A DNA stretch of 64,000 bases from Bacteroidales bacterium (GTDB lineage Bacteria > Bacteroidota > Bacteroidia > Bacteroidales > WCHB1-69), in contig JAIKWD010000021.1 in assembly GCA_024685175.1 (NCBI GenBank), forward strand, positions 7,192-71,191, given 5' to 3'. Under the pieces are notes generated by a model. The model saw only the letters and a list, made by a program, of their open reading frames with translations. It did not search any database and was not told the origin of the DNA. The position numbers and the translations under genes are program-made. This document shows positions 15,388 through 37,598 of the stretch, in pieces (the stretch's first letter is position 1; each line of letters opens with the position of its first letter).

Positions 15388-15515
15388 GGCAAACGATACG
15401 AAAGGTAGTATCTCTTTTGATGCTCCCCAAAAGCGATAAATTACTCCGTAGTGCATGTTCAATACGTTGTCAAATAATTGTGTAGACGTTAATGCTATTT
15501 AATCGAAAAAAAACA

Positions 15516-15584: not shown

Positions 15585-17180
15585 ATGACGCAAGCAAAAT
15601 ACATCTTCGTTACGGGCGGTGTCGTCTCCTCTTTGGGTAAGGGCATCATCTCAGCATCTATTGGCAAATTATTACAAGACAGAGGATTCCGTATTACCAT
15701 CCAAAAATACGATCCCTATATCAACGTGGATCCCGGTACGCTGAATCCCTATGAGCACGGCGAGTGCTACGTCACTGCCGACGGTATGGAGACCGACCTT
15801 GACTTGGGCCATTATGAACGCTTCACGGGAATACAGACTACCCGTGCGAACTCGATGACCACGGGACGCATCTACAAGTCGGTGATTGACAAGGAGAGGC
15901 GGGGCGACTACTTGGGCAAGACCATCCAAGTGGTGCCGCATATCACTGACGAGATCAAATGCAATATCCAATTTCTGGGCAATACGGGGCAATATGACTT
16001 CGTCATCACGGAGATTGGCGGCACCATCGGCGATATTGAGAGCGCACCCTATCTGGAGTCCATCCGCCAGCTGAAATGGGAGATGGGTCGTGATGCCGTG
16101 TGTGTCCACCTGACCTACGTGCCCTATCTGCGTGCCGCCGACGAGCTGAAAACCAAGCCCACGCAGCACAGCGTCAAGGAGATGCAGAGTAACGGTATCC
16201 AGCCCGACATCCTCATCCTACGCACCGAGAAACATCTGGACGACCATCTCCGCCAAAAGGTCGCCGGCTTCTGCAACGTGGATTTGGAATGCGTCATCCA
16301 AAGCGAGGACCTCTCCAGTATCTACGAGGTACCCGTCAATATGCAGCGACAAGGTCTGGATGCGGCCATTCTTCGCAAGATGGGCATTCCCGTGGGCGAA
16401 GCACCTGCGGCGGGACCTTGGAACCACTTCTTGGAATTGCGCCAAGGGGCAACGCAGTCAATACGTGTGGCCCTGGTGGGCAAATACGATCTCCAAGACG
16501 CCTACAAGAGCATTTTGGAGAGTCTGTCGCACGCCGCGACCTACCATCATCGCAAAGTGGACATACATTTTGTCAACTCCGAGCACATCGACGAACATAA
16601 TGTCGTGGAACAACTGGCGGATGCCGACGGCATCGTCATCTGCCCCGGATTCGGACAACGTGGCATAGAAGGCAAGATTCTCGCGGCACAGTATGCCCGT
16701 GAACACGATGTGCCCTGCTTCGGCATCTGTCTCGGTATGCAGATGATGGTCATCGAGTTCGCCCGCGACGTGCTGGGTCTTCGCGACGCCAACAGTCGTG
16801 AGATGGACCCCAATACGCCTAACAATGTCATCGACTTGATGGAGAGCCAGAAAAATCTGGCCCAGATGGGCGGTACGATGCGTTTGGGTGCATACGGCTG
16901 TGAGTTGCAACCAGGCAGCCGCGTCGCGACCATCTATGGCGAGACCCATATCCGCGAGCGCCATCGCCATCGCTATGAGTTCAACAATCGTTTTCTGCCC
17001 GACTTCGAAGCGCACGGTATGCGTTGCAGCGGCAGGAATCCCGACTCCGACTTGGTGGAAATCGTGGAGATGCCCGACAAACGTTGGTACATCGGCACGC
17101 AGTTCCATCCCGAATACCAAAGTACGGTGCTCAAGCCGCATCCGTTGTTTATGAATTTCATCAAAACCATAATAAGATAG
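15585..17180 (+). CDS. pyrG: CTP synthase
   Basis: KYIFVTGGVVSSLGKGI N-terminus and a glutaminase domain with GICLGMQ. Confidence 0.95.
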   Translation: MTQAKYIFVTGGVVSSLGKGIISASIGKLLQDRGFRITIQKYDPYINVDPGTLNPYEHGECYVTADGMETDLDLGHYERFTGIQTTRANSMTTGRIYKSVIDKERRGDYLGKTIQVVPHITDEIKCNIQFLGNTGQYDFVITEIGGTIGDIESAPYLESIRQLKWEMGRDAVCVHLTYVPYLRAADELKTKPTQHSVKEMQSNGIQPDILILRTEKHLDDHLRQKVAGFCNVDLECVIQSEDLSSIYEVPVNMQRQGLDAAILRKMGIPVGEAPAAGPWNHFLELRQGATQSIRVALVGKYDLQDAYKSILESLSHAATYHHRKVDIHFVNSEHIDEHNVVEQLADADGIVICPGFGQRGIEGKILAAQYAREHDVPCFGICLGMQMMVIEFARDVLGLRDANSREMDPNTPNNVIDLMESQKNLAQMGGTMRLGAYGCELQPGSRVATIYGETHIRERHRHRYEFNNRFLPDFEAHGMRCSGRNPDSDLVEIVEMPDKRWYIGTQFHPEYQSTVLKPHPLFMNFIKTIIR

Positions 17181-17182
17181 AT

Positions 17183-18826
17183 ATGAACCCCGCATTCCAT
17201 ACCATTGATATTCTCATCTTCGTCGCCTATCTGCTGCTGATTATCGGATTGGGCATCTGGATCGGACATCGGACGAACAAGAAAAACCGTTCCGCCGAAG
17301 ACTACTTCCTCGCCAGTAAGTCGCTGCCTTGGTGGACCATTGGTGCCTCGTTGATAGCGGCCAACATCTCGGCCGAACAGTTCATCGGGATGTCGGGTTC
17401 GGGCTTCGCGGGTGGTTTCGCCGTAGCTTCCTACGAGTTTATGGCTGCCCTCACGCTTATCATCGTGGCCAAGTTCTTCTTGCCTGTCTTCATCAAGCAG
17501 GGCATCTATACCATTCCGGAGTTCGTGGAACGTCGTTACTCCTCGCAACTGAAGACCATCCTCGCCGTCTTCTGGCTGGGCCTCTTCATATTCGTCAACC
17601 TCACCTCCGTGCTCTTCCTTGGCGGTAAGGCTATCGACACCATCGTGGGTACGGGCGACGGCTCGTTGATCGTGCCGGCCATCATCGGCCTGGCTGTGGT
17701 GGCGGCAGTCTATTCCTTCAGGGGCGGCCTGTCGTCGGTGGCTTGGACGGACGTGCTGCAGGTCGGTATGCTCATCGTCGGTGGCATCATCACCACGCTT
17801 GTGGCCCTGCACTATGTGAGCCCCGACGGCAATATGGCCCACGGCGTGCGCCACGTGGCCGACGTGGCCGGCGACCGTTTTCATCTGATTCTCTCCAAGG
17901 ATAATCCCGAGTTCAAGAACCTGCCCGGCATCGTAATGCTCGTGGGCGGCCTGTGGGTTGCCAATCTCTATTACTGGGGCTTCAACCAATACATCATCCA
18001 ACGGGCCTTGGCCGCCAAGTCACTGCCAGAAGCCCAGAAGGGCCTGGCCTTCGCCGCCTTCCTCAAGTTGCTTATCCCGTTCATTGTGGTCGTTCCGGGC
18101 ATCATCGCCTATGTGATGTTCACGGAAGACACGCACGGCGCCGTGAGTGCCTTCACGCTTGGCAACGGAGCACTGAACAACGACAACGCCTATCCGTGGC
18201 TCATTAGCACCTTCATCCCCATCGGGCTGAAGGGCCTTGTGCTCGCCGCCCTCGCTGCCGCCATCATCTCCTCTTTGGCTTCGATGCTTAACTCCACCGC
18301 CACCATCTTCACGATGGACATCTTTAAGCCTTATCTTGCCCCGAAGGTGAGCATCAAAATCGGGCGCGACGCCAACTTGGTGACCGTGGGGCGCATCGCC
18401 GCCGCCGTCGCCTTGATTGTGGCGTGCATCATCGCCCCGCTGCTTGGCAATGTGGGACAGATGTTCCAATATATCCAAGAGTACACCGGCTTGGTGAGTC
18501 CCGGCATCCTGGCACTCTTCCTCCTGGGCCTGTTTTGGAAGAAAACGACCAACAAAGGAGCCATTACAGGCGTGGTGCTCTCTATTCCTATCGCTCTGGC
18601 ACTCAAGTTCTTGCCTATCGATATGCCGTTCCTGGACCAGATGTTCTACACCTGCATCCTCACTATGGCCATCATCGTGATGGTGAGTCTGGCCACTAAC
18701 CCTACGGACGACGACCCCAAGGCCATACCGACGACCAGCACGCTATTCAAGACCGACCGGAACTTCAATATCGCCGCATACTCCATCTGTGTGCTGTTGG
18801 TAGTGATCTATGCGGTATTCTGGTAG
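17183..18826 (+). CDS. sodium:solute symporter family (SSF) sugar transporter
   Basis: MNPAFHTIDILIFVAYLLLIIGLGIW...DYFLASKSLPWWTIGASLIAANISAEQFIGMSG is the typical SSF/SGLT N-terminus. The ATG lies 2 nt after the pyrG stop. Confidence 0.85.
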   Translation: MNPAFHTIDILIFVAYLLLIIGLGIWIGHRTNKKNRSAEDYFLASKSLPWWTIGASLIAANISAEQFIGMSGSGFAGGFAVASYEFMAALTLIIVAKFFLPVFIKQGIYTIPEFVERRYSSQLKTILAVFWLGLFIFVNLTSVLFLGGKAIDTIVGTGDGSLIVPAIIGLAVVAAVYSFRGGLSSVAWTDVLQVGMLIVGGIITTLVALHYVSPDGNMAHGVRHVADVAGDRFHLILSKDNPEFKNLPGIVMLVGGLWVANLYYWGFNQYIIQRALAAKSLPEAQKGLAFAAFLKLLIPFIVVVPGIIAYVMFTEDTHGAVSAFTLGNGALNNDNAYPWLISTFIPIGLKGLVLAALAAAIISSLASMLNSTATIFTMDIFKPYLAPKVSIKIGRDANLVTVGRIAAAVALIVACIIAPLLGNVGQMFQYIQEYTGLVSPGILALFLLGLFWKKTTNKGAITGVVLSIPIALALKFLPIDMPFLDQMFYTCILTMAIIVMVSLATNPTDDDPKAIPTTSTLFKTDRNFNIAAYSICVLLVVIYAVFW

Positions 18827-18989
18827 TGGAATTGTTCGTTTTTCTGTCCCATTATTTATATTGTTTTTATTATTTTTGTGGTTTGTTAAAATAAACTCCT
18901 GATAGTTCCCTTAAAGGTGCTGAAAGAGGTTTTGTTTTTTTTTTAACGAACTGTAAATTAATATATTATGGTTCTGTTTTTAATGATTA

Positions 18990-20963
18990 ATGAAAAACAA
19001 GGATAGAAAAAAGTCGCCTTTCCGGTTGAAAAACATCCAGTACAGTGCGGTCATCGTTTTCGTCATCCTCTTGATGTTGGCGGTGAACGATGGCGTGCGG
19101 CTCTACTTTGTCCGCCAGAACGCCAAGGAGACCGACCGTGAGTTGAATGCCCTGGATGAACGTGTCTCTGAGCGGCGTTTACAGCGGGAGAAACAATTGG
19201 TGGAGATTGCCGTGCAGAATTTCTCCAAGTTGGCCGAACAGTACATCAAGGACGGCTTGCCCGACAGTCTGTATTCCGTGGCCCGGATGACGTTGGAGAG
19301 CAATCTGCACATCTCCAATAGCGGCATTGCCTTCCGCCACGGCTATTTTCCCAACAAGGTCAGCGATTTTTTCTTGTTCGCCTATAGAGATACCGACACG
19401 ATTCTGACCGGTGATTACCGCACGTTGTCGTTGGACTTCTATAACCGAGATTGGTACAAAGATGCGGTGACGAAGAAGGAATCCATTTGGACGGAGCCGT
19501 ACCAGGACTACAAGTCCGGCAATTCGGTGATGACCTATGCGATGCCGTTGTGGGATCCCGATGGGGAGGTGATGGCGGTGTTTTATGCCGATATGCCTAT
19601 GACTTGGGTCAAGGAGGTGTCCGAAGTGCGGAGTACCCTTCGCCTGCAGAACGAGAAACTGCAGCATCGGCTGGTTGTTATTTCGTCGTTGCTCATCTTG
19701 GTGGATTTGCTATTGTTGGGACTCATCTTTTGGAGTGCCGTCAGGTTGTTCCAGAGTCTGCGCAAGTCCGAGGAGTCGGAGGCGCGCATTATGAGCGAGT
19801 TACGGGTGGCGGGAGATATCCAGCGCGGCTTGCTGCAGGATGCGTTTCCCGTGCGGGACGATATCGCGTGTTTTGCCACGCTGACCCCTGCGCGGCAGGT
19901 GGGCGGCGACCTGTACGATTATCATTTGCGCGACGAGAAGTTCTTCTTCTGTATTGGCGATGTTAGTGGCAAGGGCGTGCCCGCCTCGTTGATGATGGCC
20001 GTAGTCAGCAGTGCTTTCCGCACGCTGACCGACCGCCAGAGCAAGCCAGAACAGATTGTCTCCTCAATGAACAAAATCGTTATAGCCAGCAATTCAAAGG
20101 ATATGTTCGTAACCCTTTTCCTCGGCGTGCTTGATTTGCCCACGGGCCGGCTTCGTTTTTGCAACGCAGGGCAAGGCTCACCGCTCCTGTTTGTGAAGGG
20201 TGATGATGAAAAATCCGAACGTTTTGAATCAATCGAAGTGATCTCCAACCTTCCGATTGGCGTGTTGGACAACTTTGTGTTCAAGGAGCAAGAGATCCAA
20301 CTACCCGATGAGGCTTCCATCCTGTTGTATACCGACGGCCTCACGGAGGCACGAAATGCCAAAGGTGACCAATATACTGAACAACGAGTACTGGAAGTGG
20401 CGCAAAAGATCGCTCAATCCGACAATTTGACCCCGCAGAACATCATTTCAACAATGAAGAGCGAGGTGTGCCACTTTACGGGCGCCACCGAGATAAGTGA
20501 CGACCTGACAATGCTTGCGCTGCAGTATCGCAAGCCGCAGTACTCTTTCGATCGTATGCGTTCTGTTACGTTGCCTTGTGACATCAAGCACATCCCCGAA
20601 CTAAATGCCTTTGTGCAAGACGTGGCCAAGGATGCGGGGATGGAAGGGACCAGGATTAAGGATCTGCAATTGGCCGCCGAGGAACTCGTGGTCAATGCAA
20701 TGTCCTACGCCTACCCGATAGGTCGAACGGGAGACGTGTTGGTGGAGGCTTTCTGGGATGACAAAATGGTGCGCTTGCGCATCACCGACAAGGGCAAACC
20801 CTTCGATCCGACCGCCCTGCCAGAAGCCGACATCAATCTTCCCGCGGAAGAGCGTAACGTCGGCGGCTTGGGCGTCCATCTGGTCCGCATGCTTACGGAT
20901 AGCATCAACTACGAACGCATAGATGAAATGAATGTATTGACAATCAGTAAATTAATAAAATAA
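18990..20963 (+). CDS. membrane sensor fusion: periplasmic Cache-like domain, PP2C/SpoIIE phosphatase, RsbW/SpoIIAB-like HATPase kinase
   Basis: Two TM segments flank a ~190-aa extracytoplasmic region. SpoIIE motifs are QVGGDLYDY, IGDVSGKGVPASLMMA and LLYTDGLTEA. The C-terminal EELVVNAMSYAY (N box), DKGKPFDP and GGLGVHLV match anti-sigma-factor kinases. Confidence 0.8.
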   Translation: MKNKDRKKSPFRLKNIQYSAVIVFVILLMLAVNDGVRLYFVRQNAKETDRELNALDERVSERRLQREKQLVEIAVQNFSKLAEQYIKDGLPDSLYSVARMTLESNLHISNSGIAFRHGYFPNKVSDFFLFAYRDTDTILTGDYRTLSLDFYNRDWYKDAVTKKESIWTEPYQDYKSGNSVMTYAMPLWDPDGEVMAVFYADMPMTWVKEVSEVRSTLRLQNEKLQHRLVVISSLLILVDLLLLGLIFWSAVRLFQSLRKSEESEARIMSELRVAGDIQRGLLQDAFPVRDDIACFATLTPARQVGGDLYDYHLRDEKFFFCIGDVSGKGVPASLMMAVVSSAFRTLTDRQSKPEQIVSSMNKIVIASNSKDMFVTLFLGVLDLPTGRLRFCNAGQGSPLLFVKGDDEKSERFESIEVISNLPIGVLDNFVFKEQEIQLPDEASILLYTDGLTEARNAKGDQYTEQRVLEVAQKIAQSDNLTPQNIISTMKSEVCHFTGATEISDDLTMLALQYRKPQYSFDRMRSVTLPCDIKHIPELNAFVQDVAKDAGMEGTRIKDLQLAAEELVVNAMSYAYPIGRTGDVLVEAFWDDKMVRLRITDKGKPFDPTALPEADINLPAEERNVGGLGVHLVRMLTDSINYERIDEMNVLTISKLIK

Positions 20964-20969
20964 TCAAGT

Positions 20970-21269
20970 ATGACAACAACGATCACACAAGAAAACGATG
21001 CCTTGTTGGCGAAACTGGAGGGCGAATTGGACACCGCCGCCGTTACACAGGTGGAAATAGACTTCCAACCGCTGATGGAAGCCGGCAAAGACATCGTCCT
21101 GGATTGCGAGAAACTCTCCTATATCAGCAGTAGCGGCCTTCGTCTCTTCCTGAGCGTCCTGAAGAACCAGAAAGCCAAGGGCAAGAGCGTCAAGATTGTG
21201 AACCTGAGTGAAGACCTACTCCGCATTTTCAGTATGACAGGGTTTAACAAACTATTTGGACTAGAATGA
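20970..21269 (+). CDS. STAS domain anti-sigma-factor antagonist (SpoIIAA/RsbV-like)
   Basis: 99 aa. LDCEKLSYISSSGLRLFL contains the conserved phosphorylatable Ser context. The gene starts 6 nt after the upstream stop. Confidence 0.85.
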   Translation: MTTTITQENDALLAKLEGELDTAAVTQVEIDFQPLMEAGKDIVLDCEKLSYISSSGLRLFLSVLKNQKAKGKSVKIVNLSEDLLRIFSMTGFNKLFGLE

Positions 21270-22612
21270 AACCATATCTTAGACTTACGGTCCTGACAAT
21301 GGGCCTGCTCGTGTCCGTTGCTCTCTCCGCGCAAGCGCAGAATCCGGACACGATAGCATCGGACGATGTCCATTCTTTCACTATTAAGGCGGACCTGATG
21401 ACTCGTGGAGAGTTTCGCTATGGCGGTATGCAAGAGGAGGAACCGGATGTGGTAGTGAAGGAGTATGCCGCCTTTTGTATGGAGCGTGCCCGTCTTAATT
21501 TGAACTATCGGTACAAGTTCCTCACGTTGCGGCTCGCGCCCCAGCACGCAGGCGTGTGGGGACAGCAGGGTGGGGGATCCTTCCGCTTGTACGAAGGATG
21601 GGCCCGCCTGCAATCGCATCAGGGACTCTTCCTACAGGTAGGACGCCAGGCACTCAATTACGATGACCAACGTATCCTCGGCTCCGATGACTGGACGATG
21701 ACGGCGTCATCCCACGACATTCTCAAAGTCGGATATGAAGGGCACGGCCATCAGCTGCACCTGATTGCAGGCTTTAACCAAAACGGAGAGAGATTGAACG
21801 GCGGCACCTTCTACGAGAACGGTTCGCAGCCCTATAAGACGATGCAAACCCTGTGGTATCATTATGACATCCCCAAGACCGACTTCGGCTTTTCTTTGCT
21901 CTTCTTGAACGTAGGAATGCAAGCAGGAGATGCCAATTCATATCATACGAAATATCAACAATTCGCCGGCGCATTTCTTAAATATCATCCGATGAAACTG
22001 GCTTTTGAGGGTTCGTTCTATTACCAATTCGGCAAAGAAGAGCACGGCATCCCCATCTCGGCCTATATGGCCAGTGCCAAGGCCTCGTACGAGGATGAAA
22101 ATTGGGGTTTGACGGCAGGCTACGACTATCTGAGCGGTGATCCGAACTTCAACGTGCCGGCCGAAGGTATGCTCGGCCTGATTCGGCACGAAACCATCCG
22201 CGGCTTCAGCCAGTTGTTCGGTTCCCATCACAAGTTCTACGGCGCTATGGACTTCTTCTATATGCAGTCGTATGTGTACGGTTTTACACCTGGTTTGCAA
22301 AACGCTTTTGTAGCAGGACGTTACAATCCAATACCGCAAGTGGAACTTGAGGCGGCCTACCACTATATGGCCATCGCTACACAGATTGCTAACCATTCGC
22401 CCTCCTTGGGCCACGAGTTGGAACTGACGGCATCCTGGAACATCACCCCGTACATCCAATTGGTCGGCGGCTATACGTTTATGTACGGTACCGAGACGAT
22501 GGAGTTCCTTAAGCGCTCGAACCCGTCGCGACAACTGCATTGGGGATGGATGCAACTGCGCGTCAACCCGGAATTGCTCAATCTTCAACACATTAACAAG
22601 AAAAGACATTAA
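21266..22612 (+). CDS. alginate-export (AlgE-like) family outer-membrane beta-barrel
   Basis: Signal peptide ..SAQAQ. VGRQALNYDDQRILGSDDWTMTASSHD matches the GRQ-x-L...DW motif of the Alginate_exp family, with alternating aromatic strands to the C-terminus. The start overlaps the STAS stop (ATGA). Confidence 0.6.
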   Translation: MKPYLRLTVLTMGLLVSVALSAQAQNPDTIASDDVHSFTIKADLMTRGEFRYGGMQEEEPDVVVKEYAAFCMERARLNLNYRYKFLTLRLAPQHAGVWGQQGGGSFRLYEGWARLQSHQGLFLQVGRQALNYDDQRILGSDDWTMTASSHDILKVGYEGHGHQLHLIAGFNQNGERLNGGTFYENGSQPYKTMQTLWYHYDIPKTDFGFSLLFLNVGMQAGDANSYHTKYQQFAGAFLKYHPMKLAFEGSFYYQFGKEEHGIPISAYMASAKASYEDENWGLTAGYDYLSGDPNFNVPAEGMLGLIRHETIRGFSQLFGSHHKFYGAMDFFYMQSYVYGFTPGLQNAFVAGRYNPIPQVELEAAYHYMAIATQIANHSPSLGHELELTASWNITPYIQLVGGYTFMYGTETMEFLKRSNPSRQLHWGWMQLRVNPELLNLQHINKKRH

Positions 22613-22624
22613 TAGCATTTTGAT

Positions 22625-23900
22625 ATGAAACAAACCTTCCCTCTTTCATCGTCCCAACTTGGCATTTTTGCCGTTTGTAATGACCATAAAGGCGAGATTT
22701 GTTACAACCTGCCGTTCTGCTTCGGCTTTGACGGCTCTTTGGATGGCGAACGCCTACGTCAGGCCGTGATGGCCTATGTGTACGCGCATCCGATACTGTT
22801 CGCCCGGATAGGGATGAACGACGAAGGAGAACCGCTGATGACTCTCGACCTGGATAATGAGCAATGGGACCTTGAAATGGAAGAGGTGGCGGACATCGAG
22901 GCTGAGAAAGCCGCCTTCCCGAAGCCGTTCGATATCGTAGGCGACCGCCTGTTCCGTATGCGTTTGTTGCACTGCGGCGACCATTTCTATTTGCTGACCG
23001 ACATTCACCATCTGATTAACGATGGCTCTTCGCACCATAATATGTTGCACGACTTCGAGGTCGCTTATGATGGCGAGACGCTTGCCCCGGAGGAGTTGAC
23101 CCTGATGGATGTGGCTCGTGCCGAGGTCGAGCTGAAGAAATCGCCGGCATTTGAGGAGGGAAAGAAGTGGTACGCCCAACATTTTGATTGCGGCGATATC
23201 TCGACGGAACTTCTCCCGGACATTGAGGGTCCGGTGCATTACGATGCCATCAAAAACAGGGTCCTGCAGACCAAATTGGAGGATGTTGATGCCTTTTGCC
23301 GTGCAAAAGGCATCTTCAAGAGCACTTTCTTCACAGCGGCGTATGCCTTCCTGTTGGCCAAGTATGTCGGAGACAAGGAAACACTGTTCAATACCGTCTA
23401 CAATGGTCGTACCGACAAACGGCTTGCCCATTCACAGGGTATGTTTGTCAAGACGCTGCCGATATATCTCAAATTTGACAACGACACTACGGCGTTGAAG
23501 CTGATGCAGGATTGCCAGCAACTCATCGCCGACAGTCGGGAACACGACGTGTACTCCTATCGTGACATTGCCCACGATTTGCAGTTGCAGATTGCCACCG
23601 ACTTCGTCTGGCACGGGATGATACTCAGCGACATCAAGTTCGCCGGGAAACCGATGACTGCCGATTTTATCGGCGTGGAGACGCACATCTCGCCCTTCTA
23701 TATGCGGGCGTACCTCCAGGACGGACACGTCTGTCTGGATGTAGAATATAGTGCCGACAAGTATTCCCTGGCCTTTGTCGACCAAATTATGGAGAGTTAC
23801 GAAGCCGTGGTGGACGGATTCCTCGTCTGTGATTACTTGCGGGATATTGATATCACCACGAAATCCCAATTGGCTCTGCTCGATGGCTTTAACGCCACAG
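22625..23900 (+). other. NRPS domain C1 (N-terminal starter-type condensation domain)
   Basis: HHLINDG at 23006-23026. The domain precedes the first A domain with no upstream carrier domain. Confidence 0.7.
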
Positions 23901-26900
23901 ATGTGCCTTACGACGACACACAGACCATCGTTTCGCTCTTCCGCGCCCAGGCGCAAAAGACGCCCGACAACCTGGCCGTCGTCTTCAAGGACAAACAGTA
24001 TACCTACAAGGAAATGGATGAGATCTCCGACCGGATTGCGGCCTTCGTCTCATCCAAGGGATTGGGAAGAGAGGATGTGGTGTCGGTGTTGATACCGCGT
24101 TGCGAATGGATGGCCGTCGCCTCGATGGGCATCTTGAAGGCCGGCTGTGCCTATCAGCCCCTAGATCCTACGTATCCTTCCGAACGGTTGAACTTTATGA
24201 TGAAGGATGCCAATGCCAAACTGTTGGTCGCTGATGAGGAACTGCGTCCTATTGTCAATGAGTACGAAGGGGAGGTGCTGTTTACCAAGGACATTGTCGG
24301 CTTGCCCGACTCTCCCGCCCCGAAGGTGGAGGTCAAACCGGAAGACTTGTTCATTATGCTGTATACCAGCGGCTCCACAGGCGTGCCCAAGGGTTGCCAG
24401 TTGATACATAGCAACTTGGTATGCTTCTGTCATTGGTACCAGCGTTACTACGGCTTGCTTCCCGAGCACAATGTGGCGGCCTACGCCTCATACGGCTTCG
24501 ATGCTTGTATGATGGATATGTACCCGGCTCTGACCGGAGGTGCGACAATACACATCGTGCCCGAAGAGATCCGCCTCGACTTGATTGCTCTCAATGACTA
24601 TTTCGAGCAGAACCATATCACCCATTCCTTTATGACCACGCAGGTGGGCTTCCAGTTTGCCACGACCATTGAGAATCACTCTTTGCAGCATCTCTCCGTC
24701 GGCGGCGAGAAATTGGCCTCTTTGGCACCGCTGGCCAAAGGACTACTGCACAACGGCTACGGCCCGACCGAGTGCACGATCTTCACCACCACCTATCCCG
24801 TGCGGGAAACGCTCAAGAACATCCCTATCGGCAAGCCGGTGGACAATATGCACTTGTATGTCGTCGATTCGCAAGGCCATCGTCTCCCCGTGGGTGCCTC
24901 GGGCGAGCTGTGCATTGCCGGCCCGCAAGTGAGCCGCGGCTATCTGAACCGTCCGGAGAAGATGGCTGAGGTGTTCGTGCCCAATCCGTACGAGACCAGT
25001 CCAAAATACGCCCGTATGTATCGATCGGGCGACATCGTGCGCTATCTGCCCGACGGCAACATCCAATTCGTGGGCCGTCGCGACGCGCAGGTCAAGATTC
25101 GCGGTTTCCGCATTGAGCTGACCGAAGTGGAAGGCATTATTCGTCAATATCCCGGCATAAAGGATGTTACGGTGCAGGCCTTCGACGAGGAAGGCGGCGG
25201 CAAGTTCATCGCCGCATACATCGTCAGCGACCAACAAATCGACATAGAGGCCCTCAACCAGTTCATTATGGAGGAGAAACCGCCCTATATGGTGCCTGCC
25301 GTCACGATGCAGGTCGAAGCCATACCGCTGACCCAGAACCAGAAAGTCAATAAACGCGCCCTGCCTAAGCCTGAGAAAAAAGCCGCCGTGGAGGAAGTGT
25401 CCAATGCGCCCTTGAACGTACTCGAGCAACAAATCAAGGAGATGGTCGCCGGCGTCGTGGGCCACAAGGACTTCGGCATCACCACCGTGCTAGGCTATGC
25501 AGGGCTGACCTCGATATCCGCCATCAAGTTGGCTGTACATATCAACAAGACATTCAATGTGGCATTGGATGCCAAGTCATTGGTGAAGAAAGGCACCGTT
25601 CAGAGTATTGAGAATGAAATTTTGTCAAAACTTCTGAATCCAGATGCGAATGTAATAGCGAGTAATGTGGCTACGGAAACGGCGACAGCCACCACGTGTG
25701 AACTGAGTTATGCCCAAACCGGCGTCTATTTCGATTGCTTGAAAAATCCGCTGTCCACAATCTATAACATGCCGATGAAAATCGGCTTCCCCATTGATGT
25801 CGATACGGAGAAGCTGGCTGCTGCCGTGCGGCAATTGGTGATTATCCACCCCCAGTTGACGGTCAGCATCGGCAACGAGGGCGGCAACGCCGTACAGACC
25901 ACCCATCCCGACATCGAGATTGACATTCCCGTTGTGCAGATGAGCGAAGAGGAGTTGAAAATCACCAAGCAGGACTTTGTGAAGCCTTTCAACCTGAAGC
26001 AAGCCCCGCTGTGCCGTTTCCAAATCGTGAAGACGGAGAAGGGCGTCTATCTGCTTTCCGATATGCATCATCTGGTCTCCGATGGCGGCTCATACGACTT
26101 GTTCATCAATCAGTTATGCGATTTGATGGAGGGCAAGGAGGTGGATGTCGAGCAGATGAACTATGCTTCGTATGTGGAGGCCGAGAAGGAAGCGGAAAAG
26201 ACTGAGACATACGCCGAAGCCAAGCGTTTTTTCCACGATCAACTCTCGATGGTGGACGGCGTTACGGAACTGACCTCCGACCTGACCAATCCGCATGCCA
26301 ACGGAACCACGAGTTGTGTAGCCGCCCCGTTCGACTGGCAGGCCGTCAACGAGTTCTGCCGCAAGCAGGGCATCACGCCAGCGCACCTTACGTTGGCGGC
26401 GGTCTATTACGTGCTTTCGCGCTTCGCCAATGCGGAGGATGTCTGCATCACCACCATCAGTAGTGGCCGTAGCAATTTGGGCATCCAAAGCACCGTGGGT
26501 ATGTTTATCAACACATTGGCGCTCAGTGCGAAGGTCGGTCAACAACCCGTGCTTGATTTTATCCGCGAAACGCGCGACAAGTTCGATGCGACTCTCTTGC
26601 ACGAGAACTATCCGTTTGCACAGATTGCCGCCGACTATGATCTCTCCGCCGAGATAATGTTTGCCTACCAGATGGGCGTGCTGAACCATTATTACCTTCA
26701 AGGCAAGGAAGTGGATGTCGAAAGCCTGGAGTTGGATGTGCCCAAGTTCCCCATCGCCTTCTATGTACGAGAAGAAGACGGGAAACCCAGCGTGGCAGTG
26801 GAGTATGACAATGGTCGATACAGCGAAGGGATGATGCGAGAGATAGCCAAGTCGGTAGCCAACGTGACCAAGGCGTTCATTGCAAAACCAGACGCTATGT

Positions 26901-29900
26901 TGGAGAGCATCTCACTTTTGGATGACACGCAAGCCCAGGAGTTGGATGGCTTCAACCAAACGGCCGTTCCCTATGATGATACGCAGACCATCGTTTCCCT
27001 GTTCCGAAAAGCCGTAAAAGAACACCCCGACAACACCGCGGTTGTCTATACGGACAAGATATTCACTTATCGGGATGTAGATGATATCACGGACCGTATT
27101 GCCGCGTATGTCGTCTCCAAGGGTCTGGGACGCGAGGATGTGGTGTCCGTGCTGATTCCTCGTAGCGAGTGGATGCCCATAGCCTCTTTGGGCGTGCTCA
27201 AGGCCGGCTGCGCCTATCAGCCCCTTGACCCGTCGTATCCGGCAGAGCGACTGAACTTTATGATGAAAGACGCCAACGCCAAGTTGCTGATTGCCGATGC
27301 GGAACTTCGTCCCATCGTGGATGAATATACAGGTGAGGTGTTGATGACCAAAGACATCGCCGCCTTGCCGCAGCGTCCGGCACCGCAGGTGGAGGTTAAG
27401 CCTAACGACCTGTTCATCCTGCTCTACACCTCGGGCTCTACCGGAACGCCGAAGGGCTGCCAGTGGGAGCACCGCAACATTGTGGCCTTCTGCCATTGGT
27501 ACCAACGCAAGTTTGCCCTCGATGCCGGTTGCCGCGTGTCGGCGTATGCTTCCTACGGCTTCGACGCCTGCCAGATGGATATGTATTCCGCGCTGACTTG
27601 CGGAGCGGCCGTCTACATCATCTCCGAAGACATCCGTCTCAACCTGCCTGAGTTGAGTCGCTATTTTGATGCTATGCAGATCACGCACGCTTTTATGACC
27701 ACGCAGATTGCCTACCAGTTTGCCACGACACAACAGTGTCATAGTCTGCATTATCTCTTGACGGGTGGCGAGAAGCTGGCGTCGCTAACGCCGCCGGAGG
27801 ACTATACGCTGGTCAACATCTACGGTCCGACGGAGACGACCATCTGCATCACCACGTTCGAGGTAAAGGAGATCTTGCAGGATATCCCTGTCGGCAAGGC
27901 CCTTGACAACCTTCAGCTCTATGTCGTGGACCATTGTGGCAATCGTTTGCCCGTGGGTGCGGCCGGCGAGTTGTGGGTGTCCGGTCCGCAGGTGAGCCGC
28001 GGCTATCTCAACCGTCCGGAGAAGACCGCCGAGACCTACATTGCCAATCCGTTCGGCCCGGGCGTCGTCTATCGCACTGGCGACATTGTGCGTTTCCAGC
28101 CCGACGGCAACGTCCAGTTCGTAGGTCGTCGCGACGGACAGGTCAAGATTCGCGGCTTCCGCATTGAACTCAAAGAGGTGGAAGCCGTTATTAGACAATT
28201 TCCTGATGTTAAAGATGTTACCGTGCAGGCCTTCGATTATGAGAAGGGCGGCAAGTACATCGCAGCGTATGTTGTGGGCGACAAGGAAATCGACGTGCCC
28301 GTGCTCAACCAGTTCATTGCACGACAAAAACCATCCTATATGGTGCCAGCTGCCACGATGCAGATCGACGCCATCCCGTTGAACCAGAACCAGAAGGTGA
28401 ACCGCAAGGCGTTGCCCGCGCCGGTCATCAATGCCGCGGATCGCGAATACGTGGCGCCGAGCAACGACCTTGAGAAGTTGTTCTGCGAAATCTATGCCTC
28501 TATCTTGGCATTGGATAAGGTGGGTGCCACCGACAACTTCTTCGATTTGGGCGGCACTTCGCTGATGGTGACGCGCGTTATCATCGAAGCCGACAAGGCG
28601 GGGCATCACGTGGCCTATGGCGACCTCTTTGACCATCCTACGCCAAGACTTCTGGCCTCTCTCATCACGGGTGGTGCGGTCGGCGAGTCCAAGTCCGAGA
28701 ACCCCATTGCCGATTACGACTACACCGCCATCCACGAGACGCTGAAGGGCAATACGCTTGACGCGTTCCGCCAGGGCGAGCGCCAGTCGTTGGGCAACGT
28801 GCTTTTGACCGGCGCTACCGGATTTCTCGGCATTCACGTGCTCAACGAACTGATCCATTCCGATGCCCCGAAGATCTACTGCCTGGTGCGTGGAAAAGGG
28901 GAGGAGGATGCCCGAAAACGTTTGCAGACCCTGTTGTTCTACTATTTCGATACATCTTTCAACGAAGAACTTGAGTCCGGACGTCTCAACGTCGTGTGCG
29001 GGGATGTGACCGCCGATTTCGGCCCTGCCCTGGTCGATGCGTCCATCCAGACCGTCTTCAACTGCGCGGCTATTGTGAAACATTTCTCGAAGGGCACGGA
29101 GATTGAGGATGTCAACATCGGCGGTGCGGAACGCTGCGTGCAGTTCTGTCTCCAGACCGGCGCCCGTCTGGTACACATCTCCACCTATAGTACCGCCGGA
29201 CTCTCTGTGAACGGAAATCCCGAGCCCGGCACCATCCAGACCGAGCAGGTCCTGTATTACGGACAGTTTATGGACAATGCCTACATCAACTCCAAGTTCA
29301 TCGCCGAGCGTATCGTCTTGGAGGCGATGGCAAGTCAAGGACTGGGTGCGAAGGTGATGCGTGTGGGCAACCTGTCGCCGCGCTCCACGGATGGCGAGTT
29401 CCAAATCAACTTCCAGACTAACAGTGCGATGGGACGTGTGCGGGCCTTCCGCATCTTGGGCGGCTATGCGTATGAGAACAGCGACGACCCGATGGAGTTC
29501 TCGCCCATCAATGAGGTGGCGGCATCCATTGTGGCCCTGAGCGCCACGCCGAAGCCGTGTTGCCTGTTCCATCCCTATAACAACCATTTCGTCCATTTCG
29601 GCGATGTGATGAACGAGTTGAGTGTCATCGGCCCCGCTCCGGCGCAAATGGAGGCGGCCGAGTTCGAAGCACGGCTCAACGCGGTGAAGGACGACCCACA
29701 GAAGGCCAAGTTCCTCTCCAGTCTGCTGGCCTACCAGGATATGGCTCACGGCCAGAAGTCAACGATGATCCCCACGGCCAACACCTACACCACGCAGGTA
29801 TTGTACCGACTTGGCTTCCACTGGTCCACCACATCCTGGGACTACATTGACAAATTCCTTACCGCCATCGACGGTTTGGGCTACTTTGACGAATCCTTGG

Positions 29901-29905
29901 AATAA
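22625..29905 (+). CDS. bimodular nonribosomal peptide synthetase, C-A-T-C-A-T-R
   Basis: 2426 aa. Two HHxxxDG motifs, two LYTSGSTGxPKGC (A3) motifs, two YGPTE(C/T)T (A5) motifs, two carrier-protein Ser motifs, and a terminal LLTGATGFLG Rossmann plus YINSK reductase. Confidence 0.95.
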   Translation: MKQTFPLSSSQLGIFAVCNDHKGEICYNLPFCFGFDGSLDGERLRQAVMAYVYAHPILFARIGMNDEGEPLMTLDLDNEQWDLEMEEVADIEAEKAAFPKPFDIVGDRLFRMRLLHCGDHFYLLTDIHHLINDGSSHHNMLHDFEVAYDGETLAPEELTLMDVARAEVELKKSPAFEEGKKWYAQHFDCGDISTELLPDIEGPVHYDAIKNRVLQTKLEDVDAFCRAKGIFKSTFFTAAYAFLLAKYVGDKETLFNTVYNGRTDKRLAHSQGMFVKTLPIYLKFDNDTTALKLMQDCQQLIADSREHDVYSYRDIAHDLQLQIATDFVWHGMILSDIKFAGKPMTADFIGVETHISPFYMRAYLQDGHVCLDVEYSADKYSLAFVDQIMESYEAVVDGFLVCDYLRDIDITTKSQLALLDGFNATDVPYDDTQTIVSLFRAQAQKTPDNLAVVFKDKQYTYKEMDEISDRIAAFVSSKGLGREDVVSVLIPRCEWMAVASMGILKAGCAYQPLDPTYPSERLNFMMKDANAKLLVADEELRPIVNEYEGEVLFTKDIVGLPDSPAPKVEVKPEDLFIMLYTSGSTGVPKGCQLIHSNLVCFCHWYQRYYGLLPEHNVAAYASYGFDACMMDMYPALTGGATIHIVPEEIRLDLIALNDYFEQNHITHSFMTTQVGFQFATTIENHSLQHLSVGGEKLASLAPLAKGLLHNGYGPTECTIFTTTYPVRETLKNIPIGKPVDNMHLYVVDSQGHRLPVGASGELCIAGPQVSRGYLNRPEKMAEVFVPNPYETSPKYARMYRSGDIVRYLPDGNIQFVGRRDAQVKIRGFRIELTEVEGIIRQYPGIKDVTVQAFDEEGGGKFIAAYIVSDQQIDIEALNQFIMEEKPPYMVPAVTMQVEAIPLTQNQKVNKRALPKPEKKAAVEEVSNAPLNVLEQQIKEMVAGVVGHKDFGITTVLGYAGLTSISAIKLAVHINKTFNVALDAKSLVKKGTVQSIENEILSKLLNPDANVIASNVATETATATTCELSYAQTGVYFDCLKNPLSTIYNMPMKIGFPIDVDTEKLAAAVRQLVIIHPQLTVSIGNEGGNAVQTTHPDIEIDIPVVQMSEEELKITKQDFVKPFNLKQAPLCRFQIVKTEKGVYLLSDMHHLVSDGGSYDLFINQLCDLMEGKEVDVEQMNYASYVEAEKEAEKTETYAEAKRFFHDQLSMVDGVTELTSDLTNPHANGTTSCVAAPFDWQAVNEFCRKQGITPAHLTLAAVYYVLSRFANAEDVCITTISSGRSNLGIQSTVGMFINTLALSAKVGQQPVLDFIRETRDKFDATLLHENYPFAQIAADYDLSAEIMFAYQMGVLNHYYLQGKEVDVESLELDVPKFPIAFYVREEDGKPSVAVEYDNGRYSEGMMREIAKSVANVTKAFIAKPDAMLESISLLDDTQAQELDGFNQTAVPYDDTQTIVSLFRKAVKEHPDNTAVVYTDKIFTYRDVDDITDRIAAYVVSKGLGREDVVSVLIPRSEWMPIASLGVLKAGCAYQPLDPSYPAERLNFMMKDANAKLLIADAELRPIVDEYTGEVLMTKDIAALPQRPAPQVEVKPNDLFILLYTSGSTGTPKGCQWEHRNIVAFCHWYQRKFALDAGCRVSAYASYGFDACQMDMYSALTCGAAVYIISEDIRLNLPELSRYFDAMQITHAFMTTQIAYQFATTQQCHSLHYLLTGGEKLASLTPPEDYTLVNIYGPTETTICITTFEVKEILQDIPVGKALDNLQLYVVDHCGNRLPVGAAGELWVSGPQVSRGYLNRPEKTAETYIANPFGPGVVYRTGDIVRFQPDGNVQFVGRRDGQVKIRGFRIELKEVEAVIRQFPDVKDVTVQAFDYEKGGKYIAAYVVGDKEIDVPVLNQFIARQKPSYMVPAATMQIDAIPLNQNQKVNRKALPAPVINAADREYVAPSNDLEKLFCEIYASILALDKVGATDNFFDLGGTSLMVTRVIIEADKAGHHVAYGDLFDHPTPRLLASLITGGAVGESKSENPIADYDYTAIHETLKGNTLDAFRQGERQSLGNVLLTGATGFLGIHVLNELIHSDAPKIYCLVRGKGEEDARKRLQTLLFYYFDTSFNEELESGRLNVVCGDVTADFGPALVDASIQTVFNCAAIVKHFSKGTEIEDVNIGGAERCVQFCLQTGARLVHISTYSTAGLSVNGNPEPGTIQTEQVLYYGQFMDNAYINSKFIAERIVLEAMASQGLGAKVMRVGNLSPRSTDGEFQINFQTNSAMGRVRAFRILGGYAYENSDDPMEFSPINEVAASIVALSATPKPCCLFHPYNNHFVHFGDVMNELSVIGPAPAQMEAAEFEARLNAVKDDPQKAKFLSSLLAYQDMAHGQKSTMIPTANTYTTQVLYRLGFHWSTTSWDYIDKFLTAIDGLGYFDESLE
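23905..25365 (+). other. NRPS domain A1 (adenylation)
   Basis: LYTSGSTGVPKGC at 24359-24397, plus YGPTECT, GELCIAGPQVSRGYLNRPE, YRSGDIVRY, and VKIRGFRIEL...NQKVNKRALP. Confidence 0.8.
25400..25620 (+). other. NRPS domain T1 (carrier protein; slightly atypical Ser motif GYAGLTSISAIKL)
   Basis: Ser motif near 25502-25530, in the position expected between A1 and C2. Confidence 0.6.
25690..26950 (+). other. NRPS domain C2 (condensation)
   Basis: MHHLVSDGGS, with HHLVSDG at 26066-26086. Confidence 0.75.
26966..28417 (+). other. NRPS domain A2 (adenylation)
   Basis: LYTSGSTGTPKGC at 27422-27460, plus YGPTETT, GELWVSGPQVSRGYLNRPE and NQKVNRKALP. Confidence 0.8.
28450..28665 (+). other. NRPS domain T2 (carrier protein)
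   Basis: FFDLGGTSLMVTRV, with the canonical GGxS near 28538-28570. Confidence 0.8.
28790..29902 (+). other. NRPS terminal thioester reductase (R) domain
   Basis: VLLTGATGFLGIHVLNELI (28802-28831) NAD(P)-binding motif. YINSKFIAE is the SDR-type Y-x-x-x-K. Confidence 0.8.
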
Positions 29906-30495
29906 TGCTCTACATCAACGACCATGTTGAAACTCTGGATTGGCAGGCGCATCTCTCGGAGTTGCCTGCCGCCCGCCAGGAAAAATGCCTGCGTTATCTG
30001 AAAGAAGAATCCCGTCGGCAATGCGTGGCCGCGTGGCTGTTGCTGCGCGATGCCCTGGAAAGCCAATACGGTCTCAAAGAGGTGCCGGAAATAGCCTATA
30101 TGCCTGATGGTAAGCCCTATTTCCCGAAAAGGCCGGATATTCATTTCTCCCTCAGTCACTGTTCCAAGGCCGTGGCTTGTGCGCTTGGCGACCGCCCGGT
30201 TGGCGTGGATGTGGAGCGCATACGGACCTATGATGACGAAGTGGCCGCCTATGTCCTGAACGATGCAGAGTTGGAACATGTGCGTAGCGCTGACAATCCC
30301 GCCTTGGAGTTTACCAAAATCTGGACGCAAAAAGAGAGCTGTCTGAAACTTACCGGCGAAGGCCTGACACGTGACCTGAAAGAAATCCTGACACAGTACA
30401 AAGTGGATTTTCAGACAAGCGTGGAACTTGAGAAGGGATACGTGTGCACCGAAGCGGTGGAATCGGTGATAATTCATAAGACGAAGAGAATCTAG
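29905..30495 (+). CDS. 4'-phosphopantetheinyl transferase (Sfp type)
   Basis: 196 aa. FSLSHC, VGVDVERI and WTQKESCLKLTGEGL are the three PPTase motifs. The ATG overlaps the NRPS stop (TAATG). Confidence 0.85.
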   Translation: MLYINDHVETLDWQAHLSELPAARQEKCLRYLKEESRRQCVAAWLLLRDALESQYGLKEVPEIAYMPDGKPYFPKRPDIHFSLSHCSKAVACALGDRPVGVDVERIRTYDDEVAAYVLNDAELEHVRSADNPALEFTKIWTQKESCLKLTGEGLTRDLKEILTQYKVDFQTSVELEKGYVCTEAVESVIIHKTKRI

Positions 30496-30504
30496 AAAAC
30501 GTCT

Positions 30505-31905
30505 TTATTTCCTAATTCCCTCCATCCACTCTGTGATGATTTCCAGTGCTTTAGGTTGGATGGTCTCCTCTATGGCGCCGTACTCTTCTGGGCTGCCAGT
30601 AGTGCAGGTCTGGAGCAGGTGGTTGGCGTTCTCCAAGACTACGAACTTGTGGTTTCTGTTCTTTGGTAAATATTTGGCGAACAGTTGGTTGTTGGCCACG
30701 GCGTCCACTTGTAGGTCTTTCTCTCCCCCAATGGCTAGAACCGGACATCTCATCTTCTTGATGTAGGATTTTGGGTTGAAACGGATGAAGTTGAAAAACC
30801 AGGGTGAGGACATCTGGCTGGCCTGTGCCCTGCGGTTTTCAAGGGTCATCCCGTACCTTTCTTGTTCTTCCGCGGTCAGCTTCTCGGCAAGGCGGTCCAT
30901 TGTCTGTCGGAGCACGGCGGCGGCCTGTTTGGGGTCTTTGGTCTTGCCCACGGCCCGATAGACGGCATCCGACAGGACCACGGAGTTGTCGATCTCCTCG
31001 GGCGTGAGTTTGCCGGAGACCTCGTTGATGGCGCGGACTTGGTACAGCAAGACATCGGTGTTCTTTTGCGCCACGCCGCCTATCGTGACGACGAATTGCA
31101 CGCGTTTGTCGCGGGCGGCCACGATTTCGGCCACTTGACTGCCCTCGCTATGGCCGAGGAGCCCGGTGGTCAGTGGCGCAAGATCCTGCCGGCGTGAAAA
31201 AGAGTCCAGAATCATCACAACTCCATCGGCGAAGTCGAAGGTCGTGGACTTGGTGAACACGGCTTGTGGATAGTCGTCGTAGCGGAACACGGCGTAGCCG
31301 TTGCGGGTGAGATGGTCGGCGATGACCTGGAACGGCTTGTGTCCCATAAGCGTCTCGTCACGGTCCTGCCATCCAGAGCCCGTGATGAGAATGACCAATG
31401 CCTTGGGCGTGCCCTCCGGCATCGTGAGCGTGCCGTTGATGAGGTTGTAGCGGCCGCCTTTCTCCTTGATGCCGATCTCTTCTTCCCGATACGGATATGG
31501 AGGCTGAGGCGTTTGCGGACGATTGATGGTCTTGCGCTCGTGCCCACGTTCCAAGGTTAACGGCAGACTCTTGTTGAACTGTTTGAGGGTGCCTGCGATG
31601 TGCTTTCCGTCGGCGGCCAGCCGACCCGTGAAGGCGGCGCTGATGTCCGCCACGCTCCATTTCAGCGTGCTGTCCTGCCAACTGCTGCTGGTGGCGGGGA
31701 TGTCCATTGTATATTGGTCTGGACTGTCCAAGGACAGCTGCAAGGAGTCGCCGTCTTGCTCCATCCATAAACCGATGGTGAGCGAGTCGCTCGGCGTGAT
31801 ACGGAGCATGCCTTCCCAATATCCGGTGATGTCTTGCGCAGAAACGATTGAACACATCAGGACGAGGACGACGACCGATAATAGTTGTCGGGTGCTATTT
31901 CTCAT
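30505..31905 (-). CDS. secreted alpha/beta hydrolase (S9/S33-like serine hydrolase)
   Basis: Signal peptide. Nucleophile elbow LLGHSEGSQVA. An N-terminal ~130-aa extra domain. Confidence 0.7.
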   Translation of the reverse strand: MRNSTRQLLSVVVLVLMCSIVSAQDITGYWEGMLRITPSDSLTIGLWMEQDGDSLQLSLDSPDQYTMDIPATSSSWQDSTLKWSVADISAAFTGRLAADGKHIAGTLKQFNKSLPLTLERGHERKTINRPQTPQPPYPYREEEIGIKEKGGRYNLINGTLTMPEGTPKALVILITGSGWQDRDETLMGHKPFQVIADHLTRNGYAVFRYDDYPQAVFTKSTTFDFADGVVMILDSFSRRQDLAPLTTGLLGHSEGSQVAEIVAARDKRVQFVVTIGGVAQKNTDVLLYQVRAINEVSGKLTPEEIDNSVVLSDAVYRAVGKTKDPKQAAAVLRQTMDRLAEKLTAEEQERYGMTLENRRAQASQMSSPWFFNFIRFNPKSYIKKMRCPVLAIGGEKDLQVDAVANNQLFAKYLPKNRNHKFVVLENANHLLQTCTTGSPEEYGAIEETIQPKALEIITEWMEGIRK

Positions 31906-37594: not shown

Positions 37595-37598
37595 TATT

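Follow-up and report, generated by a model that had tools for sequence, protein, structure and literature searches.

A nonribosomal peptide synthetase cluster of Bacteroidales that carries a partner-switching pair and an outer-membrane barrel

Bacterial biosynthetic gene clusters are usually under the control of transcription factors or two-component systems. The stretch of Bacteroidales DNA considered here (64,000 nucleotides of contig JAIKWD010000021.1, referred to below as the window) raises the question of whether another kind of control can be built into such a cluster. Five genes follow one another on its + strand: a gene for a sensor protein in which a PP2C phosphatase is fused to an RsbW-type kinase (18990-20963; 657 amino acids, aa), one for a single-domain STAS protein (20970-21269; 99 aa), one for an outer-membrane beta-barrel of the Alginate_exp family, called the porin below (21266-22612; 448 aa), one for a dimodular nonribosomal peptide synthetase (NRPS; 22625-29905; 2426 aa), and one for a 4'-phosphopantetheinyl transferase (PPTase; 29905-30495; 196 aa). 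A sequence-only reading of this locus had proposed that they form one operon, in which an environmental signal acts through STAS phosphorylation on the production or the export of the NRPS product. Do these genes belong together and, if so, on what does the switch act?

The combination recurs in most of 160 related loci, from ruminant-gut Prevotellaceae, Muribaculaceae, Bacteroidaceae and relatives, and the five genes probably represent one conserved biosynthetic unit, presumably co-transcribed. Each component is a member or a close relative of a known kind: the RsbU/V/W switch, the Rv1364c/SypE-like fusion, the AusAB-like NRPS, the AlgE-fold barrel and, in many relatives, a MatE exporter. The novelty lies in how these parts are joined, with a partner-switching pair that lacks a sigma factor and an outer-membrane barrel both built, in a conserved manner, into an NRPS cluster; no description of such wiring between an NRPS and a partner switch was found in the searchable literature, where absence is not proof. 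A PP2C/kinase/STAS switch that resides in a cluster without a sigma factor would imply post-translational gating of the NRPS or of export.

Such a system would be of interest for two reasons. It would be a tractable case for the question of which partners STAS proteins have in systems without a sigma factor. In addition, the inducing signal, once known, could allow silent clusters of Bacteroidales to be expressed and shed light on their ecology. The rumen Bacteroidaceae hold 934 catalogued NRPS clusters, which are uncharacterised and were not dissected in the survey that listed them, and the expression of some NRPS clusters of Prevotella differs with feed efficiency (PMC8241843).

Conservation of the combination across related loci

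Related loci were collected with two anchors. An alignment of 20 porin homologues led to 80 genome loci with 10-kb flanks, in which neighbours were identified by tblastn with the window proteins and by clustering of all neighbouring open reading frames (ORFs); 43 of these loci, with at least 9 kb on either side of the porin, could be judged. An alignment of the family-specific starter condensation (C) domain of the NRPS led to 80 metagenome loci, 37 of which had the 5.5 kb or more of upstream sequence required. Around the porin, the sensor, STAS and NRPS genes were all found in 27 of the 43 loci; others had the sensor and STAS genes only (four loci), the sensor gene only (three) or the NRPS without the sensor (two). 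Seen from the NRPS, the sensor, STAS and porin genes were present together in 25 of the 37 loci, and the STAS gene was present in 32, two of which had STAS only.

Only six families recur around the porin, namely the porin itself, the sensor, STAS, the NRPS, the PPTase and MatE. The other neighbours (valS, mnmE and a C69 peptidase, for example) change from locus to locus and have no relationship to the cluster. The cluster genes themselves were found in at least four orders: sensor-STAS-porin-NRPS, followed or not by MATE and by the PPTase; porin-sensor-STAS-NRPS; sensor-STAS-PPTase-porin-NRPS; and sensor-STAS-NRPS-MATE-porin. Where the porin is elsewhere or absent, the STAS gene stands directly upstream of the NRPS. 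The proteins of the relatives are approximately 45-55% identical to those of the window, which indicates that the association is old. Because the combination survives rearrangement, unrelated flanks and about 50% divergence, it points to functional linkage and not to synteny. The co-occurrence of PP2C-kinase, STAS and Alginate_exp genes with the NRPS, which the sequence-only reading had proposed to check by comparing gene neighbourhoods, was thus recovered in most loci from both anchors, in shuffled order and with unconserved flanks.

These data also bear on a purely historical co-location, in which the sensor-STAS-porin trio would be an independent envelope or nutrient-sensing module, regulating permeability for instance, that lies at a frequent site of NRPS insertion. 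Trios and lone porins without an NRPS do exist, the porin belongs to a very large family (more than 2,356 homologues at approximately 50% identity), and the porin displays no residual co-divergence with STAS or with the specificity codes of the NRPS adenylation (A) domains. However, a co-location of this kind does not readily account for an association that has outlasted so many gene orders, so many unrelated flanks and so much protein divergence, for a STAS gene that stands directly before the NRPS where the porin is elsewhere or absent, or for the retention of STAS in 32 of 37 NRPS-anchored loci. It is therefore considered very unlikely.

The packing of the genes is consistent with functional linkage. 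In the window, the stop codon of the sensor gene (TAA, 20961-20963) is separated by 6 nucleotides (nt) from the STAS start (ATG, 20970); the STAS and porin genes overlap by 4 nt (ATGA, 21266-21269); 12 nt lie between the porin stop (TAA, 22610-22612) and the NRPS start (ATG, 22625); and the NRPS and PPTase genes overlap by 1 nt (TAATG, 29903-29907). The sequence-only reading had given this layout exactly: all five + strand ORFs are in the ORF list of the window at its coordinates, the four junctions read as it described them, and Pfam recovers each of its domain calls (sensor, STAS, Alginate_exp, NRPS and PPTase). Across the family, the median gap is 28 nt between the sensor and STAS genes, 9 nt between STAS and porin (150 nt or less in 75 of 75 loci), 33 nt between porin and NRPS (150 nt or less in 51 of 54) and 19 nt between NRPS and MATE. 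Overall, adjacent cluster genes have median gaps of 9-59 nt despite the shuffled order, and the tight packing, being conserved across the family, is beyond chance.

The sensor gene is preceded by an AT-rich leader of 163 nt (18827-18989, + strand), which contains a candidate Bacteroidetes -7 promoter element, TATTTTTG (18871-18878, + strand), a consensus-level match located 119 nt before the sensor ATG. On the + strand between 18500 and 30600, the motif TAnnTTTG has two matches, the one in the leader at 18871 and another at 23440, inside the NRPS gene; in this range, none lies just upstream of the STAS, porin, NRPS or PPTase starts. An internal promoter before the NRPS, which the sequence-only reading had named as evidence that would speak against a single operon, thus has no counterpart in this motif. 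The pattern fits one promoter and one transcript, at the level of a consensus match, which is not proof. A scan with a sigma-70 promoter and terminator model was set aside in favour of the TAnnTTTG search, as its counts did not exceed shuffle expectation and the model is unsuited to Bacteroidota. An Rfam scan of 18000-31000 returned no known leader RNA, its single match being a chance hit to a snoRNA.

The sixth family, MatE, is a membrane protein of approximately 446 aa (Pfam E 2.9e-31), whose gene is directly downstream of the NRPS in many relatives (e.g., loci L004, L010, L021, and L032). Among the 36 loci with at least 2.5 kb downstream of the NRPS, MATE alone follows it in 13, and MATE together with the PPTase in seven. 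The PPTase is present in part of the family only, and its position is variable. The nearest relatives of the window, loci L001 and L161 (72% porin identity), have no MatE and have a sensor domain shorter than that of most of the family, and the lineage formed by these two loci and the window may thus differ from the family in detail.

The phosphatase-kinase, the STAS protein and the question of a sigma factor

In the sensor, hydrophobic segments at approximately aa 17-35 and 228-251, as read from its sequence, bracket a PDC domain, which fits a periplasmic sensor. This PDC/Cache-like, putatively ligand-binding domain (aa 95-207; 19272-19610, + strand) was detected by the Pfam models MCP-like_PDC_1 (E 1.2e-17) and dCache_1 (E 1e-7), and has weak matches in the PDB to the Cache sensors 3lic, 6iop and PctC (5ltv). 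No other part of the cluster is as divergent: its mean pairwise identity is 34%, vs. 52% for the PP2C-kinase part. When the segment 18990-19859 is compared with relatives, the sensors of the window, L001 and L161 (approximately 657 aa) have a periplasmic region that is short and only one PDC match; most relatives (e.g., L162 and L164) have sensors of approximately 730 aa with dCache_1.

The catalytic domains are well conserved. The SpoIIE/PP2C phosphatase domain (aa 315-513; 19932-20528, + strand; Pfam SpoIIE, E 1e-46) has the metal-binding motifs GDVSGKG (D324), YTDG (D449) and SDDLT (D504, D505), which are invariant in 97 of 97 distinct members. The serine kinase domain, of the HATPase_c_2 (RsbW/SpoIIAB) type (aa 530-654; 20577-20951, + strand; Pfam E 1.2e-22), aligns with RsbW in the PDB (6m36_A, E 1.5e-5), and its N-box (E565, N569), G1 (D600, G602) and G2 (G625, G626, G628) residues are invariant in 92 of 92 full-length members. 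The NCBIfam matches of the sensor, to SiaA, RsbW and SpoIIE, are weak. Its best solved relative is Rv1364c of Mycobacterium tuberculosis (3ke6, E 2.5e-17), and since the alignment (aa 292-603) spans both PP2C and kinase, the fused phosphatase-kinase is a known architecture. The fusion is therefore present as it had been described and is not unusual in itself, being found in Rv1364c and also in SypE (PMC8256260).

The STAS protein (Pfam STAS, E 1e-16) aligns with RsbV (6m36_B, E 1.9e-12), with 'YISSSGL' opposite 'YMDSTGL', which places Ser54 (codon 21129-21131, + strand) in the register of the phospho-acceptor. Ser54 is invariant in 109 of 109 distinct homologues, and Ser54, Ser55 and Gly56 are all invariant or nearly so. 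Three parts by which a partner switch is recognised are thus present: a PP2C phosphatase with intact aspartates, an RsbW-type kinase with its boxes, and a single-domain STAS protein with a predicted phosphorylatable serine. Judged by residue conservation, the phospho-switch is intact. In mirror-tree comparisons, the strongest co-divergence of STAS is that with the kinase domain (partial r 0.45, p 0.002), as expected of physical partners, while the PP2C and sensor domains give 0.23 each.

What does this switch act upon? In the classical form of partner switching, the kinase domain or STAS would control a distant sigma or anti-sigma factor that transcribes the operon or a wider regulon. The STAS protein and the kinase are indeed sequence relatives of RsbV/RsbW and SpoIIAA/SpoIIAB, and the closest solved relative of the sensor, Rv1364c, belongs to a sigma-F system. 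However, neither sigma nor anti-sigma genes are among the six families conserved around the porin, and none of the nine short ORFs tested in the window encodes a sigma factor; among larger ORFs, the scan covered those at 13.6-37.5 kb. The absence of a sigma/anti-sigma target from the window, as claimed by the sequence-only reading, consequently holds for the conserved families and for these nine ORFs, in a window that was scanned in part. Similarly, at six loci where the trio occurs without an NRPS, the trio has unrelated neighbours, none of which is a sigma or an anti-sigma gene, so that the pairing of the trio with such genes elsewhere, which would have spoken against a link to the NRPS, was not seen at these loci. 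In addition, the kinase is tethered to the membrane within the sensor and, to our knowledge, group-3 sigma factors, the usual targets of RsbW/SpoIIAB, are untypical of Bacteroidales. Classical switching through a sigma factor thus appears distinctly improbable. The conserved neighbourhood contains no sigma or anti-sigma gene as the switched partner, which leaves a distant gene or a non-sigma partner as candidates; since the cluster is accompanied by no gene for a sigma factor, an anti-sigma factor or a DNA-binding protein, its output is most likely post-translational.

Related switches are known, and a non-sigma output has precedents in SypE/SypA and in a PP2C/STAS module of Anabaena. Rv1364c, which belongs to sigma-F regulation, senses through a cytoplasmic PAS domain and has its STAS domain fused to it; it shares with the present sensor the fusion of opposing PP2C and RsbW-like kinase activities directed at a STAS domain, and differs from the present system, in which the sensor is periplasmic and Cache-like, STAS has a gene of its own and the locus holds no linked sigma factor. 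In SiaABCD of Pseudomonas aeruginosa, a small phospho-protein directly regulates an enzyme, not a sigma factor. SypE of Vibrio fischeri is a cytoplasmic protein with an N-terminal kinase, a central receiver domain and a C-terminal phosphatase, whereas the order here is Cache, transmembrane segment, PP2C and kinase, with no Response_reg match. Like the present sensor, SypE carries an RsbW-type kinase and a PP2C phosphatase in one polypeptide and acts on the conserved serine of a single-domain STAS protein, SypA; both genes are inside the biosynthetic locus that they control, with a non-sigma output (PMC8256260, PMC10120452). The genes of both proteins belong to the syp biofilm locus, and the target of the pair is unknown (PMC8256260). 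In the present cluster, which belongs to another phylum, the corresponding control is inferred, and the product would be an NRPS peptide and not a polysaccharide. In Anabaena, a PP2C/STAS module (HenR/STAS) regulates a glycosyltransferase (PMC13555669). SiaABCD and the Anabaena module thus resemble the present system as partner-switch-like PP2C/kinase systems with an enzyme, not a sigma factor, as target; in contrast to it, they regulate a diguanylate cyclase and a glycosyltransferase, respectively, their phosphatase and kinase are separate proteins, and no NRPS is involved.

Synthetase, barrel and the gating of production

The NRPS (two Condensation, two AMP-binding and two PP-binding domains and one NAD_binding_4 domain in Pfam) has the order C-A-T-C-A-T-R, in which T is a thiolation and R a reductase domain. 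C1 covers aa 1-440, C2 aa 1023-1440, T2 aa 1953-2014 and R aa 2061-2300, with A2 beginning at aa 1460. The motifs HHLINDG (aa 128), HHLVSDG (aa 1148) and GATGFLG (aa 2063) are present, as is the T2 serine in LGGTSL (aa 1975-1980). The His motif of the starter C domain and the NAD motif of the R domain are kept in 74-76 of 76 family members (GATGFLG in 76 of 76). The Stachelhaus codes of the window, DAMFLVGIFK for A1 and DAMFLGIICK for A2, look hydrophobic; they were extracted with a GrsA reference segment, which gave back the published code DAWTIAAICK. These codes vary widely in the family, the pocket of many relatives containing Arg or Lys (e.g., DAQSRGCVAK and DAMQGKVIFK), which suggests that a constant accessory set serves products that are diverse across the family. 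The PPTase is of the Sfp type (Pfam ACPS, E 1e-14, and AASDHPPT_N).

The closest characterised counterpart is AusA/AusB, the aureusimine/pyrazinone synthetase and PPTase of Staphylococcus aureus, which likewise combines a dimodular NRPS, a terminal reductase that releases a dipeptide aldehyde, and an adjoining Sfp-type PPTase dedicated to it. In NCBIfam, the NRPS and the PPTase match AusA and AusB best, and both scores are below the equivalog cutoffs (1503 vs. 2500 bits and 72 vs. 225 bits). The domain orders also differ, A-T-C-A-T-R there and C-A-T-C-A-T-R here. The additional N-terminal C domain predicts an N-capped dipeptide, probably N-acylated, and therefore no cyclisation to a pyrazinone, as an N-acylated dipeptide aldehyde is unable to cyclise in this way. 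Judging from these domains, an N-acyl dipeptide aldehyde is the most likely product, and in this organism both of its residues would be hydrophobic. An assignment of the starter C domain to the lipo-initiation class by sequence was tried and dropped: the elongation C domain of TycC was nearest, which gives no support either way. A family of gut dipeptide-aldehyde NRPSs is reportedly described by Guo et al. 2017, and ruminopeptin reportedly by Schneider et al. We know of no partner-switching pair or outer-membrane barrel in the known clusters of the AusA/AusB type or of the gut dipeptide-aldehyde type. The predicted product resembles N-acyl dipeptide aldehydes of the gut, and gut-bacterial dipeptide aldehydes are protease inhibitors (PMC8210680, PMC12327764).

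The porin begins with a segment resembling a signal peptide. Its match to the Alginate_exp family (PF13372) scores 31.2 bits against a cutoff of 25.2, over a single stretch of 38 aa, and no NCBIfam model matched it. Most of its homologues carry a precomputed PF13372 match, and in Bacteroidales such as Muribaculaceae and Prevotella they bear the name 'alginate export family protein'. An AlphaFold2 (AF2) model has approximately 18 strands, with a mean confidence (predicted local distance difference test, pLDDT) of 70.8 and four low-confidence segments. The best PDB match of this model is AlgE (3rbh; E 2.6e-13, template-modelling (TM) score 0.56), and the general porins MOMP and OmpF score nearly as well. 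The description of the barrel as AlgE-like is therefore a matter of resemblance in fold and says nothing about the cargo. The porin has in common with the AlgE/AlgK system of Pseudomonas the family PF13372 and AlgE as best structural match; it differs in its sequence (10-11% identity), in its near-equal likeness to general porins, and in its context, as genes for the synthesis of alginate or another anionic polysaccharide, or for an AlgK-type partner, are absent among the conserved cluster partners. The presumed cargo here is a small peptide, not an anionic polymer. A role in alginate export was discarded for these reasons: no polysaccharide genes, a 38-aa Pfam match and a resemblance at the level of the fold.

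At four loci (L005, L016, L031, and L067), an ORF of approximately 404 aa that resembles a reverse transcriptase by sequence and an ORF of approximately 180 aa are located just upstream of a stand-alone porin, on the opposite strand. They could be a pair of the retron or DRT (defence-associated reverse transcriptase) type. The porins of these four loci are the sister group of the porin of the window.

Taken together, these features suggest a mechanism in which the PPTase would prime the C-A-T-C-A-T-R synthetase, which would assemble an N-capped dipeptide and release it reductively. Binding of a ligand by the periplasmic Cache-like domain would shift the balance between the PP2C phosphatase and the RsbW-type kinase, and this balance would set the phosphorylation state of Ser54 in STAS. 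In one of its two phosphorylation states, by analogy the one without phosphate, STAS would dock on a cytoplasmic partner, either the NRPS or an exporter of the inner membrane, and thereby gate production, while the AlgE-fold barrel would offer a passive path across the outer membrane for the small amphipathic product, for the ligand or for both. An output on the NRPS or on the exporter would parallel what is seen in SypE/SypA and in the Anabaena PP2C/STAS module. We consider this reading, an NRPS unit whose production is gated post-translationally through sensor-set STAS phosphorylation, with the barrel as passive outer-membrane path, about as likely to be right as wrong.

Several observations weigh against it. 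Among the porin-anchored loci, seven of 43 porins stand alone; among the NRPS-anchored loci, five of 37 have none of the three genes and five have the sensor and STAS genes without the porin; and intact sensor-STAS-porin trios occur with no NRPS within 10 kb. Moreover, almost all the loci come from metagenome-assembled genomes of ruminant-gut Bacteroidales, which are phylogenetically related and not independent samples. MatE is absent from the whole 64-kb window and from the closest relative, L001, which leaves inner-membrane export unaccounted for. Among PDB structures, the starter C domain comes closest to a C domain of the ordinary elongation type (TycC, 2jgp), and N-acylation is read from the position of this domain only. 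Finally, the mirror-tree signal between STAS and the R domain of the NRPS (partial r 0.21, p 0.002; for STAS and the porin, -0.10) is weak and may reflect the R domain as the best phylogenetic clock; it serves to generate a hypothesis and is a lead only.

A bolder form of the gating mechanism can be considered, in which STAS would be a direct, phosphorylation-gated ligand of the NRPS, with the A2-T2-R module as one candidate site, or of an inner-membrane exporter, and in which the sensed ligand would possibly be the peptide aldehyde of the cell itself or of its neighbours, admitted by the porin. If true, this would be a self-contained communication circuit resembling quorum sensing, widespread in rumen and gut Bacteroidales; we regard it as a speculative proposal that is quite unlikely to hold in full.

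The NRPS-less trios invite another explanation, centred on reception. The porin would admit a diffusible peptide aldehyde, pyrazinone or related signal produced by the cell or its neighbours, the Cache domain would sense it, STAS would relay it to the NRPS by autoinduction, and genomes with the trio only would be 'listeners'. Intact trios persist without an NRPS at L023, L034, L025/27/29, L058, L040, L012, L024 and L041, and at L023 and L034 a PPTase has been left behind beside the trio, as the scar of a deletion. In the porin tree, the porins without partners lie scattered between those that belong to a cluster, and some lone porins occupy the same chromosomal site as full clusters (the mnmE context of L018/20/26 vs. 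L065/L056). A passive barrel conducts in both directions. In addition, the sensor domain evolves faster than any other part, and its identity correlates with the codes of the A domains (r 0.65; partial r 0.47 when the PP2C-kinase part is controlled for), and the window and L001 combine a distinct short sensor domain with distinct hydrophobic A-codes (L161 is cut off within the NRPS). However, the link between sensor and A-codes almost disappears when NRPS phylogeny is controlled for (partial Mantel, partial r 0.11, p 0.019), the trio-only genomes might hold NRPS genes elsewhere, and an N-acylated dipeptide aldehyde cannot become a pyrazinone signal. Reception of this kind is therefore judged unlikely.

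Neighbouring genes and other observations

The GC content of the cluster (0.51-0.57) is like the window average, the extremes of the window being 0.43 (40-46 kb) and 0.62 (4-6 kb); there is no compositional sign of a recent transfer of the cluster. Its flanks contain genes unrelated to it. On the 5' side are pyrG and an SSF symporter gene, and on the 3' side, on the opposite strand, genes for an alpha/beta hydrolase, a Nudix protein, an FG-GAP protein sorted by the type IX secretion system (T9SS) and an M23 peptidase.

Two of these neighbours were considered as possible cluster members and rejected. The alpha/beta hydrolase (30505-31905, - strand) was matched in none of the 160 loci. The SSF symporter is syntenic with the cluster solely in the closest relative, L001 (88% identity), and in L029 it is near the trio on the opposite strand.

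The symporter gene is listed at 17024-18826 (+ strand) with a TTG start, by which it would overlap pyrG (15585-17180, + strand) by 157 nt. A likelier start is the ATG at 17183, 2 nt past the pyrG stop, in which case pyrG and the symporter gene are also tightly packed. Further upstream, an ORF of 432 aa without a Pfam match (14164-15462, - strand) has a homologue of 45% identity at the corresponding end of L001. On the other side of the cluster, the FG-GAP repeat protein with its T9SS C-terminal sorting domain is encoded at 32380-34599 (- strand), followed by the M23-LysM peptidase at 34589-35545. This sorting domain marks a Bacteroidota host and, together with the relatives that were retrieved, assigns the window to Bacteroidales. 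The region 35975-42087 (+ strand) begins with the alpha subunit of D-lysine 5,6-aminomutase (E 3e-271), after which come four more + strand ORFs, and is probably a lysine-fermentation operon. The screen of short ORFs also found a PRiA4_ORF3-like protein (58986-59585, + strand) and the delta subunit of ATP synthase (47489-48046, - strand).

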